Source: a phage. From it: a DNA stretch of 64,000 bases. Each line of letters begins with the position of its first letter. Positions within the stretch are counted from its first letter, which is position 1. The notes beneath the pieces are model-generated. The model made no database searches. It saw nothing but the letters and a program-made list of their open reading frames with translations, and was not told the origin of the DNA. The DNA lies in the NCBI GenBank assembly GCA_033286805.1, contig GCA_033286805.1_4727.1; one strand, written 5' to 3'. A program made the translations under genes and the position numbers. This document shows, piece after piece, positions 7,009 to 14,230 of the stretch.

Positions 7009-8232
7009 TTATTTGGCGTCGTTAAAATAAATATCAACAGCTCGTTCCGTTGCGTAGAGGAGACCAAGATTCACAGTCCCAACCACTTCCGGTGAACCGA
7101 TGATACGGTTAGCGATACTGGTGCCACTGAAGATAGCATCAAGGGTGTGCCCGTCTTCGGTTTTGTTCACACCATGACCCACGGAAGAGACAACGGATTT
7201 CGCTTGAGCTGCGAAGGTACCTTTATCGCCCATCCCCGCACCAAGGTCGTAACGCATGAAAATACGGATGGCGATCTGGTTCTCGCCTAACGGATTACCG
7301 TCTATTCTCACGTTACTATTATTGATACGCCCCGTAGTTGCTTCGTTGAGTTTCAGTTCCTTAACGCGTTTAGCTCGTGCTTTATCCGCTTCACCGACGA
7401 GCGCCGCCATGGTTTCACTCATATCCTCAATCTGAGCGCGGTACAGTACATCGATCTGTACAACTTCACCATGAACGTCAGCACGTGGGTTATACTGACT
7501 CATACGACGTAATGCTTCAACGGCTTCCTGACTCTCATCACTCAGATCGGTCGCAATCGGTTCTTCCAGTGTTGCAAGGATCGTTCGTGGTTCAACATGA
7601 TCGCCGATTTTCACGAGACCACGAATGTTGAGATGAGCGTCAACAATGAGCGTACGGCTCTTAATCGATGGTGTTACGAGACGATCGGCAAGATTGTCGA
7701 AGATATACGAACTGTCCTCGTGAGTCTCTGGAATATCCAGAATACCGACAAGAGACAGAACACCTGCGCGCCAAACAACCTGACCTGGGTTCCACCAATC
7801 GCGTTTAAAATAAAGACGATGGAAGACCACCACATCCTGATCCTTAACGCGATCCCCGACTTTATAATCGGTAATGAGATCGTGAGGATAATACTTACCT
7901 GGTCCTTTCCCGATTATCGTACCGAGCTGGAAAACCTCTTCCCCTAACTCTGGATCGTCGTATTGTATCGTCAGCGCAGTTTTGGTGACCTTCTTAACAA
8001 CACCGTCACCTTGGGCGGCAGCTGCAAAGAGTTTACCAACACGATGCGCGATGACAGTCTCGCCACCCGTACGCCATGGTTGTACATCGTAACCTTCAGC
8101 AGCAATCATGCGGTTGTGCTGTATACCTATAAATACGAGACGCTTTGGCGAAATCCAGCAAAATACATTTACTGTGCGTCTGGATTGTTCAGATAAGGTC
8201 GTTAATCTTATCCCGGAGGCGATGACAGGCAC
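7009..8232 (-). CDS. Multisubunit RNA polymerase beta-like segment (middle region; probable downstream exon of a split beta gene)
   Basis: IQHNRMIAAEG...VQPW...RTGGETVIAHRVG resembles the bacterial beta HDDANRALMGANMQRQAVP...VGTGME region; MGDKGT...GHGVNK resembles GDKxxGRHGNKG; ORF opens only 3 codons upstream of a GTG. Confidence 0.6.
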   Translation of the reverse strand: MPVIASGIRLTTLSEQSRRTVNVFCWISPKRLVFIGIQHNRMIAAEGYDVQPWRTGGETVIAHRVGKLFAAAAQGDGVVKKVTKTALTIQYDDPELGEEVFQLGTIIGKGPGKYYPHDLITDYKVGDRVKDQDVVVFHRLYFKRDWWNPGQVVWRAGVLSLVGILDIPETHEDSSYIFDNLADRLVTPSIKSRTLIVDAHLNIRGLVKIGDHVEPRTILATLEEPIATDLSDESQEAVEALRRMSQYNPRADVHGEVVQIDVLYRAQIEDMSETMAALVGEADKARAKRVKELKLNEATTGRINNSNVRIDGNPLGENQIAIRIFMRYDLGAGMGDKGTFAAQAKSVVSSVGHGVNKTEDGHTLDAIFSGTSIANRIIGSPEVVGTVNLGLLYATERAVDIYFNDAK

Positions 8233-8609
8233 ACCGCCTCCCGCTTACGTTCTCACGCAAGAGCAGACTATATCACATCTCGTTTCAAACGGTGCTTCTT
8301 CAGCACCTCAACGAGAGTTCACTTCTTCCCAGCGCATCCAGCGCCATTCTCTTATCCAAGGAGAATGCCTCACTCGAGGGGTACCGGGGGATGAATCCCT
8401 TAGTCGTTGAACCTTTACCTTAGAACGCTTCACAGCGATCCTTAGGTACTTGGCTGCGGATTGTCCTTAAGCTATTATCTGTTTTTATAACCATACCGTC
8501 TTTCTTTTCAGAATCCGTTTTGGTCGATAACAGCGATGGATGTCTTCGCAATTCAGTGAATCTCATCTACATGTCGCCACATAGACGGACCCTGCTATTA
8601 AAAGCGTTA
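8231..8609 (-). ncRNA. Group I intron (ORF-less), approximate boundaries
   Basis: Minus-strand reading gives P-like GAAUUGCGAAG (about 8543-8556), Q AAUCCGCAGCCAAGUACCUAAGG (about 8447-8466), R GGUUCAACGACUAAGGG (8394-8414), S GAUAUAGUCUGC (8267-8276), in canonical order with GACUA/UAGUC P7 pairing; stop codon immediately at the putative 5' splice site. Confidence 0.75.
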
Positions 8610-11600
8610 ATCATCTCTGTCGGCAGCAGGTACTGCAAGTGCCGATGTACTCATTATTGACGAGCTACCATCCGTTTTCTCGTCGTAGGGTTTCGTTTCA
8701 CCGTATACAGACACAATGTTTGCGTTAGGTGCGAGGTAAGCAGAAATACCTACGTCCCCACTATCCTTCGTACCTTCGGATACAACACCAATGTCCGACT
8801 TGTCGTATTCACGATCGCGTGCGCGTCGAAGCGATGTCTTTGAACGACCCCCGATACCGGTCATCGTTGCTTCTTCACCCTGCTTGATATCCAACATCGG
8901 GTTGGTTTCATCGATCACGATGGAAGCGCTGTCGTCGAGAATTTGGTTCCAGACGCTTACCGGACTGATTGAGATTTTCTGGCGATTTCCTTGACTGCTG
9001 TTCTCATTCTGACGAATAGCGCCAACCAGATCCTTATACACCAATTCAGCGAACTTATCGTACGTTTTAAAACGTTGGTAGTTCACATCGTTGGTGTTAG
9101 GTGCCCAGTCATCCAGAAGCAGTTCAACAGCACGCAGTAACAACATGGCGAAATCGGTAGGTTCTCCCATGTTCTGTAGCAACGTACGGCTTACCGGATC
9201 AACGAAAAGACGCTCCATGAGTTCAAGTTCGCGTAAATGACGAACCTTAAGTCCAGCACCATCGACAACGTTAAAATAGATATCTCGATTGTCAAAAGCG
9301 CCGCGAGCGTAACCAATGTAGTTACGGTACTCGTTAAACCCACCCAGCAACAACGTCGTCATGCGATCGTCTTTACTGAAAATCAAACTTTCGTCGTCAA
9401 AGCTCACCGCGAATTCATCGGGTGCTAAACCCATACGAGAACCGCGAGGTACCGTACGATAGTTTGCTTTAAGATGTTCTAATAACGGGGTAAGTCCACC
9501 CAGATAACTTAGAACAACACCGACCGGAATACGTACACCCATGAATTCAAGATCGGCAGCTTCGATCGGCATCTTAGCCGCATTGATACCGAAGAAATCG
9601 GGGAACGTCCCTACAGGTGTTGGTGTTTGTCCTGACTGACAGATATAGAGCTGATTGCGTTTATCGATTGCTAAGAATTCACCCAGCGTGTTACGCGCAA
9701 ACGTCAGGAGCCCTTCGGCTAACTGTTCGTTGAACCGATCTTCCCCGATGAACTCCGGCAATGTTTTTATATCGAGACGTATATCCCAATCAGCAAATTG
9801 GATTTGGGTATAGTTGCGTGCAAGCACAGCGAAGTAATACGGGACTTTGACGGCCGGATCAAAGACGTTACCACGTTTTAACGTGGTTAAGGGTGAGGAC
9901 TTATCGTAATACATCGCCGTAAGTTGACGTGTTAGCCAACGACCGGCGTTATTAACGACGCGCTCTGAACGTTTAACAAACACCTTACCGTAGGCGGTAC
10001 TCAACGCAACTTCGGATGACGACACCTTTCTGATAGGTTTATCGACGCGTTGTTTACGCATCCGGTACTTGATGCCGTTAACGACATAAATGCCATCCTT
10101 ACGAACCTTCGGCAACATCACCGGGAACGTGGTTGGGACACCGCCTACAGGAGCCAGTTTAATCGTGATGACTTGATAATCCCCCATCACGTCAACAACG
10201 TCTTCGACTTTATAACCCGTAACAGGGTAACCTGCTTGCTGCACCGCAACAACGGCAGCTGCGATGTCCTTTTGCATCACGTGTTCAACGTAATGTTTAT
10301 CCCACACCGCAAGCGTCGATTTACATAGGCTCTTATCGACGATAACATCCGCTTCCGGCATAACCTTTGCTGGCGCTAATTTCGCGGCTTTTGGTTTAAC
10401 TTCAACATACTCAGCAAGTGTTAATCCAGAACCGTCGGGTGCTTCGATTTCGTGGATAGCGTCAGCATTACGCATCGCTGCTTTATATTGAACGCCGCTT
10501 AACTGACCCGCATCCGCCAGATCGCTCGCGCGCACCAACACCGCATCTGATAACGACTGAATATATTCACCGTGCGTTTTTGGTAACGTTGCCGCGTCAA
10601 AGACATCAACCTTTTCTTCTTCGGTATTGTCGGTAACGACTTCGAAGAGATCGTCAGTAATGTCCTGATCTTCATCGGGTTGGAAATCTGGTTGTACTTC
10701 TACCCCGGGTACTTCACGGACATCTTCGAACGAGCGTTCTACAATGGCGTTCCACGCATCAGCGTCATCGTCTTCATCCGACCCACCAACCAACTCCGCT
10801 TCTAACTCATCGGGATCAAGAACAGTGGCCAGATCCTCACCGTTAGGAAGCACGACGTCGCGATCATCGTACTCCGCATCCGGGCTGTCCGCAAGAATAT
10901 CTCGCTCTTGACGAAGAACCTGTTCCTCTTCTTGTTTCTGTTCTTCTTCATTCGCGCTCTGCGACCACAGACGTGTTACCGCCATCATCCAACGACGCTG
11001 GAAGGTTTCAAGTGTCGTTTTATCGAGTTCTTCCCCTTCCTTAACAAGCCCGGTACGCCATTCCTCCAGTAGACCAAGATTCAACGTAAAGAAGTACACA
11101 CCGTCTGTAAATACAACGTTAAGCTTATCCAGTGTGGCTCTGTCTAACGAAGCCATCGTGCTGTTCTCACGATCGGTTCCCAACCAGCGGAAGAAGTCAA
11201 AGAACGATAGCTCCTCCGGCGTGGCGAAATTCATGAGGTTGTTACGGGTCGGTGCCTGTTGCGTGGTACGCATCAACGAAATCTTCGGCAATGTTGACGG
11301 TATACGGAACAACAGAAAGTGTTGACGATCGCTTTGCTGTGCGATTTCGTTGGCTTTCGACCAAATTGTTTTACGCACGTTGAACCATTCATCATACCAA
11401 CGGGTGAGCGTTGGACGATAAATGTACATGTGGTTAAGATGCGCGTAGTTAGCAACGATCTGAGCGTTGATGTTTTTCTCCACCGCGCTCAGATCGGTAA
11501 CCAAACGAAAACGACGATGTGACGCACGATAATCCAATTTCGCTCGTGGGAGTTGGAATCGTTGATCACGTCGAGGTGCGCCCTGTTTGGTTGCGAGATC

Positions 11601-11816
11601 ATCAGCAAACGAAATCCATAGTTGAGCACTTTCTTTACTCAGCATGTATTCGTTTTCTGGAGGACCTATCAATGAAGGATCCGTTGCGGTGTAATGATAG
11701 ACAGCATAACGCGGCAGCTGCAATAGCTGCACTAAACGTAATCTTGGTGATAGTAGCTCTTGGTAGCGTCTGACACCAAACTGTCGGTAGTAATCAAGGT
11801 ATTTAAGTTTTGCCAT
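8607..11816 (-). CDS. Multisubunit RNA polymerase beta-like subunit, N-terminal portion (1069 aa)
   Basis: C-terminal TGIGGRSKTSLRRARDREYD...GVVSEGTKDSGDVGISAYLA matches the bacterial beta GPGGLTRERAGFEVRDVH...[20 protein letters not shown] region; GGAG RBS before the ATG. Confidence 0.65.
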   Translation of the reverse strand: MAKLKYLDYYRQFGVRRYQELLSPRLRLVQLLQLPRYAVYHYTATDPSLIGPPENEYMLSKESAQLWISFADDLATKQGAPRRDQRFQLPRAKLDYRASHRRFRLVTDLSAVEKNINAQIVANYAHLNHMYIYRPTLTRWYDEWFNVRKTIWSKANEIAQQSDRQHFLLFRIPSTLPKISLMRTTQQAPTRNNLMNFATPEELSFFDFFRWLGTDRENSTMASLDRATLDKLNVVFTDGVYFFTLNLGLLEEWRTGLVKEGEELDKTTLETFQRRWMMAVTRLWSQSANEEEQKQEEEQVLRQERDILADSPDAEYDDRDVVLPNGEDLATVLDPDELEAELVGGSDEDDDADAWNAIVERSFEDVREVPGVEVQPDFQPDEDQDITDDLFEVVTDNTEEEKVDVFDAATLPKTHGEYIQSLSDAVLVRASDLADAGQLSGVQYKAAMRNADAIHEIEAPDGSGLTLAEYVEVKPKAAKLAPAKVMPEADVIVDKSLCKSTLAVWDKHYVEHVMQKDIAAAVVAVQQAGYPVTGYKVEDVVDVMGDYQVITIKLAPVGGVPTTFPVMLPKVRKDGIYVVNGIKYRMRKQRVDKPIRKVSSSEVALSTAYGKVFVKRSERVVNNAGRWLTRQLTAMYYDKSSPLTTLKRGNVFDPAVKVPYYFAVLARNYTQIQFADWDIRLDIKTLPEFIGEDRFNEQLAEGLLTFARNTLGEFLAIDKRNQLYICQSGQTPTPVGTFPDFFGINAAKMPIEAADLEFMGVRIPVGVVLSYLGGLTPLLEHLKANYRTVPRGSRMGLAPDEFAVSFDDESLIFSKDDRMTTLLLGGFNEYRNYIGYARGAFDNRDIYFNVVDGAGLKVRHLRELELMERLFVDPVSRTLLQNMGEPTDFAMLLLRAVELLLDDWAPNTNDVNYQRFKTYDKFAELVYKDLVGAIRQNENSSQGNRQKISISPVSVWNQILDDSASIVIDETNPMLDIKQGEEATMTGIGGRSKTSLRRARDREYDKSDIGVVSEGTKDSGDVGISAYLAPNANIVSVYGETKPYDEKTDGSSSIMSTSALAVPAADRDD

Positions 11817-12494
11817 GGGTTAGGCTCCACGAGGTCCCGTTAAGTTGCGTAATAGGAACGCAACCGTATCGTAACCAATATCGATGTTGAATTTATTTTT
11901 ACCACTTACCCAGAAAGCTCGCTTCTTGTGCGAGTTGGTAATTTCGTCAATAGCTTCCATGGAATAAAGAACGTTAACCGAGACCGTATCACCGTCGAAC
12001 CTTGTCTTCGCCTCAGTTCGCTACGCTGAGACCGCCTGCATGGATACGTACATCACAGGCTGCTTGCACTTTCATGCAAGAGGAGACTATATCAAACCGG
12101 CAGCACAACCTGCTACGGTAACCTACACTTCGAAGACGCTTGTCCTCTACAGGGTGGTAAATCCCTTAGTCGTTGAACCTGCGTTGTTTCACATTCTTGC
12201 AAACAAGAATGCCGTATTACTACGCAACAACCAGGCTGCTGATCGCCCATTGTTTCGCACCTTAGCACCGCTTACGCGGCTTTTCTTTCAGCCTAAGCCT
12301 CTTACGGAGGTAGTGCATCTCAACTGTTGTTTCTGCCTTTCGGCACCTCATGGGTCGTTGAGCTTTAGGGGTTCCCAGCAATTCGTAGGTTTTTCAAGCA
12401 CTCTCTTTCGAGAATACCGGACCAATTCAGTTAGTAAACAACATTATTACCATCCCCCATTCTCAAGGGTTAATTTTTTAAAATGATAGAATTA
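11814..12494 (-). ncRNA. Group I intron (ORF-less, about 680 nt), approximate boundaries
   Basis: Minus-strand P-like AAUUGCUGGGAACC (about 12370-12386), Q AUCAGCAGCC (about 12231-12250), R GGUUCAACGACUAAGGG (12160-12180, identical 21-mer to the other intron), S GAUAUAGUCUC (12085-12094). Confidence 0.7.
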
Positions 12495-13985
12495 ATGTGT
12501 TTTTGGGCTAACTCGAAGATCACCGCCTAAACCGGCGAGGTATGGCGCAGGGACAATAGTAGTTTCTACGAACGAAGCATTAGGTAACCAGTCGGGGTAT
12601 TCCCACGCAATAAATCGCTCGTCCGTTATTGGTTCCCAGTTGCTATCCAATTCGGTTTTCGGTTTTGCAGCGACGGTTGTACGCGCGTAACAGGTTAACG
12701 GAATGACGGATTGCATACCCGATACCGGATAACGTGTTACCATCGCTGCCAGGTTATTCCAGTACTTATATCCGGCAATATAGATAAGCTCGGTGTACGT
12801 GATGGGGTGAACATCCGCGCCGGGTTTATTCAACATCTCTGGGGGTAATTCACTCATACCACGGAACAGTCGAAACGAATCATTGTTCACATAGACAAGA
12901 CAAAGATATCGTCCATTAACCATGATAGGTTCGTTACGCACACCAGGATCGCTTAAGGTGTTCAGTAAACGTTCTATTCCGTCCCATGTTGTAAAGTCAT
13001 CGATGGTGTCTGGATCAAGAGTGACACGTTCACGTTCCATCGTTTCGGTATCGATAAGTTCAACTTCTGTAACATCACGGACAAATATTTCCTGCAAAAT
13101 CCCCGTACGTAACGCGTGTTGTGTTACAGGGAGAGCAGCTTTACTCATCTGGTATAACCCTAACTGAACTGCGGTACAGGAAGGCTGGTTAGGCGACCCT
13201 AGTACCTCCGTTGTGGGGTTAATTGCCGAAATAACGTTACGGGTTGAGTTCCAAACACGACGTGAGCCGAACTTCCCTTGGAAGATCCCTTTCTTACCTT
13301 GGAACATATCCAACAGTAAAGCGTAGATATCGTTGAATGTTCTCTGTAAGCTCCAGCGCTGGCCGTCGTAAACGGGATCGGAATAATCTTTTAATCCATC
13401 AGGGACGGTGTTAGAAATTGCAAGGAAACGACGATACAACTCCGTGATTTCTTGCTCGCTTTCATACCCACCTTCTTTTACTTCTATTTCACGTAAGCCC
13501 GCAGGCAATACCAGTAAGTGACGAGTCATCGCTTTGAACATGTTCTCTTCGACGACTTTAATTCGTAGCTCTCGTTGAGCTGAACCCGTTGAAACGAACT
13601 TGATATCCGCGACGTGTTGTGCAAAGAACCCATATCCTGTTTGTCCTGTTAGCGCATCGGACGCAACGAAGTCGCGTTGTTCAGGATCCCACCGAGCGTA
13701 CGCCTTCCCCGACATGATATCACCATAGAGGTGTTTTAGTCGAATGAGGCGGTCGTAAATGACAGGATGCAGGATTTCAACCTTGCATTCAATCACCGCA
13801 AATCGACGGTCTCGATCTTCACTACCCGCACTACCAAAGATGGTGTAAGAATAGAAACCGTCATCGTGGAAATTACCGGTGCTTGGGTCACGGATGCTCA
13901 TGCTCGTGATCTTGGGAAGAAAACGTAACTGCTGTTTATCGAGGTGTAAAATGCTAATGTTAAACGGCTCTCTGACTTTAGCCAT
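12492..13985 (-). CDS. Multisubunit RNA polymerase beta'-like subunit, N-terminal fragment
   Basis: DGFYSYTIFGS ~ beta' DGLFCARIFGP; FAVIECKVEILHPVIY ~ MGHIELASPTAHIWF; LLVLPAGLRE...ELYRRF ~ VLPPDLRP...LYRRV; GKKGIFQGKFGSRRVWNSTRNVIS ~ [23 protein letters not shown]. Start placed at the ATG at 13985 with AAGAGGAG RBS; ORF track extends to 14027. Confidence 0.7.
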   Translation of the reverse strand: MAKVREPFNISILHLDKQQLRFLPKITSMSIRDPSTGNFHDDGFYSYTIFGSAGSEDRDRRFAVIECKVEILHPVIYDRLIRLKHLYGDIMSGKAYARWDPEQRDFVASDALTGQTGYGFFAQHVADIKFVSTGSAQRELRIKVVEENMFKAMTRHLLVLPAGLREIEVKEGGYESEQEITELYRRFLAISNTVPDGLKDYSDPVYDGQRWSLQRTFNDIYALLLDMFQGKKGIFQGKFGSRRVWNSTRNVISAINPTTEVLGSPNQPSCTAVQLGLYQMSKAALPVTQHALRTGILQEIFVRDVTEVELIDTETMERERVTLDPDTIDDFTTWDGIERLLNTLSDPGVRNEPIMVNGRYLCLVYVNNDSFRLFRGMSELPPEMLNKPGADVHPITYTELIYIAGYKYWNNLAAMVTRYPVSGMQSVIPLTCYARTTVAAKPKTELDSNWEPITDERFIAWEYPDWLPNASFVETTIVPAPYLAGLGGDLRVSPKTH

Positions 13986-14230
13986 GGAGACACTCCTCTT
14001 TACCACCACCGGCTGCGGCGGTATCATCTGAACACACGAGAGACGTAATGGGTGATGGCGTCACCCATCGCTTCCTTGCTTGAGGCGAGGAAGTTATTAG
14101 GTTACGTACCTGCCTGATTTTATCAGGTGGGCGATGTGTGAAGTTACGCTTCAACATTATCAATGCCGAAGGTAAACTTCGTGCATCACGTTCCAACGTA
14201 ACATGGGAACGTATCGAACTGGAGGTATAC

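Follow-up and report, generated by a model that had tools for sequence, protein, structure and literature searches.

A group I intron without an open reading frame in the virion RNA polymerase beta'-N gene of a Goslar-like jumbo coliphage

The DNA analysed here is a stretch of 64,000 nucleotides (nt) from contig GCA_033286805.1_4727.1 of assembly GCA_033286805.1, hereafter the window. It comes from a nucleus-forming jumbo coliphage of the Goslar type and is ~95% identical to Escherichia phage Goslar. On its minus strand, a group I intron interrupts the gene for the N-terminal piece of the beta' subunit (beta'-N) of the virion RNA polymerase (vRNAP). We consider it very probable that this 519-nt intron (12518-12000), which has no open reading frame (ORF), is spliced out so that a single protein of 548 amino acids (aa) is made, and that it is a homing-type element lacking its endonuclease.

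Identity and boundaries of the intron

The Rfam group I intron model RF00028 matches the minus strand at 12063-12447 with 56.5 bits (gathering score 50), covering the full model (1-253) at an E-value of 1.1e-11 across the whole window, which is far beyond chance. An earlier reading made from the letters alone, here called the original prediction, had placed a group I intron on this strand and named a covariance-model scan as a way to check it. The P, Q, R and S strings on which that prediction relied were all located on the minus strand in the correct 5'->3' order, together with the P4 and P7 pairings expected from them (Table 1). The opposite outcome, an ordinary spacer with a promoter or terminator, did not materialise, and no promoter-like or terminator-like sites were found around the intron region. 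An ORF search detected no endonuclease gene on the intron strand, and no homolog of the Goslar endonuclease gp206 was found anywhere in the window. The antisense ORF of 148 aa at 12040-12486 (+) lies wholly inside the structured intron RNA, has no PHROG or other family match and is almost certainly spurious.

The gene carrying the intron was recognised in two pieces. The upstream ORF (12492-14027) matches phrog_2986 ('RNA polymerase beta subunit') over positions 3-484 of 539 (E = 3e-161), and a 66-residue translation from inside the supposed intergenic gap (12020-11820), containing ...FDGDTVSV..., aligns with its positions 484-538 (E = 1e-10). Position 484 is the exact point where the profile passes from the upstream ORF to the peptide that follows the intron. 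Further, the upstream ORF shares 99% aa identity with Goslar gp205 through ...PYLAGLGGD and diverges afterwards. The eight extra codons before its TAA (12494-12492), translated as LRVSPKTH, are read-through into the intron and, judged from the homologs, should not be part of the mature protein. On the other side of the gap, ORFs of 1069 aa and 407 aa are the two halves of a phrog_3148 beta-like subunit. A Pfam search of the RNA polymerase pieces gave no match. Searches against PDB returned weak beta'/gamma matches, namely AR9 beta' (7s01_d, E = 4e-4) and plastid and cyanobacterial beta'/gamma subunits, and AR9 beta' (...LSGDYDGD...) was aligned with the joined motif. Because the locus is syntenic with PhiPA3 (tail fibre gp213, gp212 ~ phiKZ gp180, gp211 ~ phiKZ gp178) and with the phiKZ-species phage KTN4, whose genes are annotated 'virion-associated beta/beta'-like', the interrupted gene is best identified as the N-terminal beta' piece of the vRNAP, a homolog of phiKZ gp180 and Goslar gp205. 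The PHROG and PDB matches, the DFDGD motif and the synteny with phiKZ and PhiPA3 thus all bear out the original naming of the flanking genes as beta'-N and beta.

Exon 1 ends in ...PYLAGLGGD (...GGC GGT GAT), with its last T at 12519, 24 nt upstream of the stop region at which the ORF, as originally read, closes with CAT TAA (12497-12492). Joining GAT (12519) to TTC (11999) in silico keeps the frame and gives ...PYLAGLGGD/FDGDTVSVNV...GPRGA followed by the stop codon (the slash marks a splice junction here and below). The joined product, ...LGGDFDGDTVSV...GPRGA, has 548 aa, or 562 aa from the upstream ATG; exon 1 contributes 489 aa when translation begins at MAKVREP... and 503 aa when it begins at the ATG at 14027. 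Its junction-spanning segment reads ...AGLGGDFDGDTVSVNVL.... The spliced reading restores the Mg-binding DFDGD motif of beta', which exists only after joining; the intron accordingly sits between the codons of the first Asp and the Phe of the catalytic D/FDGD. The (N)ADFDGD motif that characterises the N-terminal, gamma-like part of beta' in multisubunit RNA polymerases is found in one polypeptide after splicing, as ...GLGGD/FDGDT.

Several observations fix the boundaries to the nucleotide. The junction peptide aligns without gaps to KTN4 (...LAPLGADFDGDTVS... across the join), PhiPA3 gp212 and Erwinia phage pEa_SNUABM_54 (...LSGLDGDFDGDTAS...), all with the pattern ...L.GDFDGDT.S.... Of 285 phage records, 246 match at least 80% of the junction-spanning query at one place; in the other 39, no single place does. 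An intronless allele with 100% protein identity is present in IMG/VR UViG_3300011560_000001 (237.5 kb, locus L009), where the junction reads GGT GGG GAC/TTT GAT GGT GAT within the site sequence GGTGGGGAC/TTTGATGGTGAT. BLAST left 19 bases of this allele unaligned, and since these are the 13 nt of the exon 1 end plus the 6 nt of the exon 2 start that flank 12518-12000, there is no insertion or deletion at the join. Shifting either boundary by one base produces GATC-TCGAC or GAG-TTC, neither of which fits the GAY TTY GAY of the homologs. From the intronless homologs, the L009 allele and the one-base shift, the intron is therefore 12518-12000 (519 nt). The correct beta'-N product is join(13985..12519, 11999..11820). 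Goslar has a 100% identical exon 2, and the intronless homologs are collinear with it.

These boundaries differ from the original placement, which put the intron in the gap between the two genes (11814-12494). Instead, it starts at 12518, 24 nt inside the upstream ORF, and ends at 12000; the 5' splice site is GAU/CUU at 12519/12518, 8 codons upstream of the CAU/UAA first proposed, and the 180 nt at 11999-11820, taken for spacer, are coding exon 2. The estimate of ~270 nt between the S element and the downstream ATG was sound (~267 nt), whereas its interpretation as a decayed insert was not: the interval consists of ~85 nt of P9/P9.1/P9.2 and the 180-nt exon 2. A GGAG 8 nt ahead of the ATG at 11816 is present as described. 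The suggestion that came closest to the outcome was a fallback, a short overlapping exon; the short exon exists (59 codons) and stops 3 nt ahead of the beta ATG.

The original prediction also raised an in-frame fusion of beta'-N to beta at this ATG through a CAU/UAA 5' splice site, to which we assign next to no probability. The ORF does end in CAT TAA, and the other intron of the window begins right at a stop codon (GAT/TAA, 8610/8609), but this splice would delete the 59 FDGD-containing residues found in every homolog, and LRVSPKTH is absent from all homologs. Further, a conserved TAA (11822-11820) closes exon 2, and in intronless relatives beta'-N and beta are two separate genes, 0-5 nt apart. 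The fusion is refuted by the homolog alignments.

It is just as improbable that the intron sits in an untranslated spacer, in the 3' untranslated region of beta'-N or the 5' untranslated region of beta, and is excised without any effect on protein. The 676-nt non-coding gap shown by ORF callers, which public gene calls on identical contigs also leave empty, would suit such a location. However, the last 55 positions of the beta'-N profile are matched by the 180 nt that follow the intron, and in the intronless alleles these 180 nt are contiguous with exon 1; profile match and intronless alleles together refute it.

Fold of the intron and pairing at the 5' splice site

The minimum free energy (MFE) fold of the intron (z = -2.1 against shuffles) recovers P2 to P9.2. 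P3 (8 bp) and P7 are able to form and cross each other; all of their columns are invariant in 8 alleles, so that covariation is uninformative for them. Between P7 and the 3' strand of P3 lie two hairpins, 12166-12151 (P7.1) and 12147-12132 (P7.2), a 37-nt insertion relative to the Rfam consensus. Such a pair of hairpins at this position is the mark of subgroup IA in the Michel-Westhof classes and would place the intron in that subgroup. An MFE pairing of the intron 5' CUUCG with a 3' CGAAG is not conserved in Goslar and was disregarded.

Among the 8 distinct alleles, 99.2% of pair cells hold standard pairs and P7 is the same in 8/8. Variable columns make up 12 of 250 paired as against 27 of 181 unpaired columns (Fisher p = 5e-4), which means that substitutions avoid helices. 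The changes within helices comprise one compensatory pair in P2 (U-A <-> C-G) and one P2 wobble change, wobble changes in P6b and several single changes that preserve G.U pairs; in the P6a loop, GUAA alternates with GCAA and the GNRA form is kept.

The pairing in P1 was deduced from a comparison of three alleles in which the sequence from the 5' splice site to the core is unrelated: the window, UViG_3300045988_173921 and Goslar, with 95, 38 and 1571 nt (including the HNH ORF gp206), respectively, between splice site and shared core. In each of them the first 15-20 nt of the intron pair with ~20 nt preceding an invariant GUCC. RNAduplex energies are -10.0, -14.2 and -17.4 kcal/mol for cognate combinations and -4.2 to -8.8 for non-cognate ones. 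The same register would hold in all three, with the exon U at -1 pairing with the G of GUCC in 3/3 and the pair at intron position +1 covarying (C:G, C:G, A:U). In the window, the predicted P1 pairs are U12519.G12422 (a wobble, at the splice site), A12520-U12421, G12521-C12420 and C12518 (+1)-G12423. From this pairing in three alleles it follows that the variable insert, including the Goslar endonuclease gene, probably lies in the P1 loop.

Other candidates were tried and set aside. A first P1 guess, GGUGAU/GUUAGCC just past the splice site, was dropped, having no equivalent in Goslar or UViG_173921. P10, between exon 2 UUC and a GAA upstream of the guide, could form in two alleles but not in Goslar, and is not claimed. 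For the 95-nt P1 insert of the window, descent from the Goslar endonuclease ORF or from the 5' end of the OMKO1 intron was not supported: local alignments were no better than shuffles, 359/500, 488/500 and 217/500 of which scored at least equally high.

Table 1. Features of the interrupted beta'-N gene, its intron and the second intron of the window
Feature	Position	Strand	Basis
Exon 1 of beta'-N	12519..13985	-	phrog_2986, Goslar gp205 identity, collinear intronless homologs
Group I intron, 519 nt, no internal ORF	12000..12518	-	RF00028; boundaries from intronless alleles and homologs
Exon 2, 59 codons FDGDTVSVNVLYSMEAIDEITNSHKKRAFWVSGKNKFNIDIGYDTVAFLLRNLTGPRGA, then TAA (11822-11820)	11820..11999	-	phrog_2986, homolog collinearity
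First 24 nt of intron, read by ORF caller as LRVSPKTH	12495..12518	-	homolog divergence
Intron terminal G (omega-G), 3' splice site ...ACAAGG/UUCGAC	12000	-	junction comparison
GGAG (11828-11825) and ATG (11816-11814) of separate vRNAP beta gene	11814..11828	-	sequence, PHROG match
Predicted P1 extension and loop, allele-specific insert, closed by AGUUAG (12513-12508)/CUAACU	12424..12517	-	allele comparison, fold
Predicted internal guide sequence G-GUCC (P1 3' strand)	12419..12423	-	RNAduplex, three alleles
P element AATTGCTGGGAACC	12383-12370	-	string located
Q element ATCAGCAGCC	12243-12234	-	string located
R element GGTTCAACGACTAAGGG	12179-12163	-	string located
S element GATATAGTCTC	12093-12083	-	string located
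P2 hairpin, GAAA loop	12394..12421	-	MFE fold
P3, 8 bp: AACCUACG with UGUAGGUU	12391-12384 with 12127-12120	-	RF00028 alignment, MFE fold
P4: UGCUGG (12380-12375) with UCAGCA (12242-12237)	12237..12380	-	RF00028 alignment, MFE fold
P5 (CCC/GGG) and ~110-nt multi-hairpin extension, GAAA or GUAA loops	within P4, 12237..12380	-	fold
P6, P6a, P6b	12177..12236	-	MFE fold
P7: GACUA (in R) with UAGUC (in S)	12171-12167 with 12089-12085	-	pairing located
P7.1 (AGGG/CCCU) and P7.2 (GAGGAC/GUCUUC), between P7 and P3 3' strand	12132..12166	-	MFE fold
P8, short form	12096..12119	-	MFE fold
P9 (12080-12063), P9.1 (12060-12034), P9.2 (12032-12010)	12010..12080	-	MFE fold
Second group I intron, ORF-less, in vRNAP beta gene	~8149-8609	-	RF00028, Goslar gp207 alignment

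Splicing, allelic variation and mobility

Collectively, these features suggest the following course of events. The pre-mRNA would fold into a canonical P3-P8 core in which P7.1/P7.2 are of the IA type and the P5 extension is large, followed by P9-P9.2. The last exon 1 nt, G-A-U, would pair with the guide GUC(C) at 12422-12419, ending in the U12519.G12422 wobble, and exogenous guanosine would attack after U12519. The terminal G12000 would then occupy the P7 site, and the freed 3'-OH of exon 1 would attack after G12000. Ligation of GAU to UUC would recreate the DFDGD metal-binding loop in one 548-aa protein, and the beta gene, starting 3 nt past the beta'-N stop, would be translated separately. 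Without an endonuclease the intron should not be able to home by itself; going by general homing biology, it may be mobilised in trans by a gp206-type enzyme in a mixed infection, and an intron-bearing allele, its target being interrupted, should be immune to such an enzyme.

Splicing would be needed for a functional enzyme, because FDGD has no start codon of its own: no in-frame ATG, GTG or TTG lies between the TAG at 12023-12021 and the motif. This bears directly on the idea that the intron is a dead relic and that beta'-N is made as a 497- or 511-aa product ending in LRVSPKTH plus a small C-terminal piece, a further split of the polymerase. We regard this as very improbable. Jumbo-phage RNA polymerases are naturally split into 4-5 polypeptides already (PMC7598289), the Rfam score is modest, the intron has no endonuclease ORF, and the sole ATG in the exon 2 frame (11960) could start a 46-aa peptide. 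However, FDGD lies upstream of this ATG and, with no start codon before it, two of the three catalytic aspartates could not be translated. Moreover, the core is invariant over the 8 alleles with substitutions kept out of the helices, and exon 2 is 100% conserved at the protein level, in frame and with an exact GAU/UUC join.

Some points weigh against an intron that is active as proposed. The RF00028 score exceeds the gathering threshold by just 6.5 bits. P1 has only 3-4 pairs adjoining the splice site, two of its guide nucleotides (U12421 and C12420) are paired in a P2 extension in the MFE fold, and P10 is weak and not conserved in Goslar. Formal covariation over the 8 alleles is weak as well (18/500 shuffles, one compensatory pair) because these alleles are 93-98% identical, and with 3 alleles it is uninformative (167/500 shuffles). 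That splicing is deduced from sequence counts on the same side, as does phiKZ, in which ONT-cappable-seq detected no splicing for predicted intron endonuclease genes including gp179 (PMC10914365). It should, however, be noted that KTN4, a genome of the phiKZ species, has no intron at the beta'-N site, which qualifies the phiKZ result.

A true group I intron at these boundaries might also splice inefficiently alone and need a phage or host protein (an RNA chaperone or a maturase-like protein) or the conditions of the phage nucleus. Most phage group I introns tested self-splice in vitro, which argues against such dependence, and there is no direct counter-evidence. Folding of the T4 introns is reportedly assisted by the ribosome, in work of Sandegren and Sjoberg from 2007. 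Such help would be unavailable in nucleus-forming phages, the peripheral extensions of P5, P8 and P9 are large and variable between alleles, and P1 is short and P10 weak, all of which would fit a helper. In nucleus-forming phages, transcription is separated from translation (PMC12908238). On balance we consider a need for help unlikely.

The intron is polymorphic in nature. Genomes that are ~95% identical at the nt level hold one intronless allele (L009), two ORF-less intron forms and one ORF-bearing form. Presence/absence polymorphism with an intact intronless target, as expected of a mobile intron, is thus observed; the homing endonuclease ORF also expected of one is absent from the window intron and present in Goslar (HNH_3/NUMOD1). 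The exon 1 product of 497 aa, which starts at the internal Met and includes the read-through tail, occurs in 47 blocks of public assemblies, one of them a 235-kb contig in GCA_008101945.1; the assembly index has no entry for the exact 511-aa ORF. In six public contigs with an identical exon 1 product (L027-L032) the intron measures 519, 539, 552 or 573 nt. These lengths differ by clean hairpin modules, of 33 nt in the P5 extension and 21 nt in P8, and the core is unchanged; P8 extensions in other alleles span 49 columns in Goslar and are shorter in some assemblies. The beta'-N intron of each length occurs with either an uninterrupted 1448-aa or an interrupted 1069-aa beta gene, and the two vRNAP introns assort independently among these near-identical genomes.

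More speculatively, the beta'-N and beta introns may be independently assorting modules in an ongoing cycle of intron gain, endonuclease loss and intron loss, with the ORF-less form immune to the gp206-type HNH nickase and with translation-independent splicing that could gate the export or timing of vRNAP mRNA. We hold this only tentatively, as one possibility that is more doubtful than not. If it were true, the ORF-less form would persist as the defensive counterpart of the 'weaponised intron' gp210 of PhiPA3, splicing would be translation-independent because transcription takes place inside a ribosome-free phage nucleus, and the cycle would run within one near-species-level population of Goslar-like coliphages. 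The natural allele series (intronless, two ORF-less, one HNH-bearing) could be used for tests of homing and of endonuclease-mediated interference competition in E. coli jumbo phages, as for PhiPA3 and phiKZ.

Related introns in phage RNA polymerase genes

The second RF00028 match in the window, at 8244-8611(-) with 55.3 bits, belongs to an intron in the vRNAP beta gene. It follows ...AADRDD (GAT at 8610) and begins directly with TAA, and the R element GGTTCAACGACTAAGGG is common to both introns. In Goslar, gp207 is uninterrupted, and its residues 1-1069 and 1071-1448 flank the intron of the window. The 3' splice site is approximate, residue 1070 being G in Goslar and P if the terminal G is at 8149. 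Judged by alignment, this intron occupies the published site of PhiPA3 gp210, equivalent to phiKZ gp178 D1072. In UViG_3300011560_000001 (L009/L021), the beta gene resembles that of the window only as far as the beta insertion site, and ~1 kb beyond it lies an intron core of 51.4 bits (L021 4040-4463), which suggests an ORF-containing intron in that beta gene.

A related core (81-85% identity over 50-70 nt) interrupts a paralogous beta'-like gene, phrog_2987, at loci L006, L007 and L008. The intron of the Seoulvirus phages Proteus phage 7 and Salmonella phage SaP7 carries a phrog_59 HNH ORF and lies just upstream of ...DFDGDQF, and that of Vibrio phage vB_pir03 (L008) lies upstream of ...FDGDMM with several small unclassified ORFs. 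These cases suggest that introns of this family insert into the homologous active-site region of either RNA polymerase set. A scan with the R element also returned group II matches at L017 1179-1710 (IMGVR_UViG_3300021254_000020, 266 kb; RF02004 91 bits, RF00029 43 bits), three tandem group I matches (76-98 bits) on an 8-kb contig (L016) and two at L020.

The D/FDGD site of beta'-N is used repeatedly by group I introns. Pseudomonas phages OMKO1 and U1B (Phikzvirus), Xanthomonas phage RTH11 and Vibrio phage Yong XC32 have the same junction, ..GAT/TT[CT] GA[CT] GG., in the orthologous gene, with Rfam scores of 69-93 bits. Several introns of this group start directly with TAA, whereas that of the window does not, and some carry ORFs; the one allele aligned, from OMKO1, is loosely alignable to the window outside the universal core. 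For Pseudomonas phage fMGyn-Pae01, the only evidence is a protein match in two pieces, as in OMKO1. Across the Rfam-confirmed intron-bearing alleles (the window, Goslar, UViG_173921, the six assemblies, OMKO1, U1B, RTH11 and Yong XC32), position -1 is U/T (GAT) in 13/13, and G precedes exon 2 in every inspected 3' junction (all but OMKO1). Of four intronless alleles, three have GAC at the junction. In Photobacterium phage PDCC-1 (L026 3773-5479), the same gene is interrupted at the same residue; exon 1 ends in GAC (C at -1), no Rfam match reaches the gathering score, and after a 416-aa ORF comes a 59-aa coding sequence (CDS) annotated 'RNA polymerase beta subunit'. Either a divergent intron or some other insertion could account for this interruption.

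The closest relative is the intron annotated in the isolated phage Goslar (NC_048170) as the non-coding RNA (ncRNA) HOV27_gs002 'Intron_gpI', between gp205/gp206 and gp207, which has the same gene and site as that of the window. The locus order is tail-fibre gene, gp205, gp206, ncRNA 'Intron_gpI' and gp207, and the junction is, like in the window, GGCGGTGAT/...AAGG/TTCGACGGTGAT. Between the guide sequence and the terminal G, the cores share 96-98% identity. In contrast, the Goslar intron measures 2044 nt, with a 490-aa HNH_3 + NUMOD1 ORF (gp206) in the P1 loop and a longer P8. The window intron is ORF-less and has a short P8, and its 95-nt P1 extension is unrelated to that of Goslar. In the Goslar RefSeq record (L001 2963-4471, 6474-6653), the gp205 CDS runs 13 codons into its different intron 5' end, the 59-codon exon 2 with FDGD is unannotated and the exons are unjoined, so that the deposited beta'-N is truncated; gene calls on metagenomic contigs share this problem. 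Hence beta'-N is mis-called in the window phage, in Goslar RefSeq and in dozens of metagenomic contigs, and the called product is truncated, without two of the three catalytic aspartates.

Annotation of the beta'-N site is limited to the Rfam match in the Goslar record. Our literature search found no paper describing an intron at this site, a search combining DFDGD, intron and phage returned nothing relevant, and the Goslar description (Korf 2019) does not mention introns. Introns in chimallivirus RNA polymerase genes as such are already known, and that of the window is an ordinary endonuclease-less phage intron without a new mechanism. In general features it can be likened to the td, nrdB and sunY introns of T4, which belong to subgroup IA, interrupt conserved enzyme genes and have P7.1/P7.2, a U.G at the 5' splice site and a terminal G. 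T4 introns likewise occur in ORF-containing and ORF-less forms in natural populations. The host gene differs, however, and the T4 ORFs lie in loops of the 3' half (P6 or P9), whereas the insert of window-type introns is in the P1 loop.

In chimalliviruses, PhiPA3 has a self-splicing intron in its non-virion RNA polymerase (nvRNAP; gp65-66, 10.1101/2023.09.22.559000) and the gp210 intron in its vRNAP beta gene gp211/209 (Birkholz et al. 2024, PMC11620839; reviewed in PMC12908238). The gp210 intron is likewise a homing-type group I intron in a chimallivirus vRNAP gene, at conserved Asp codons of the catalytic region. It differs in gene (beta, not beta'-N) and site, and in that it encodes an active HNH nicking endonuclease that gives a competitive advantage, whereas the intron described here has none. 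With the latter, chimallivirus vRNAP genes have a second homing site that introns use recurrently, located within the DFDGD codons.

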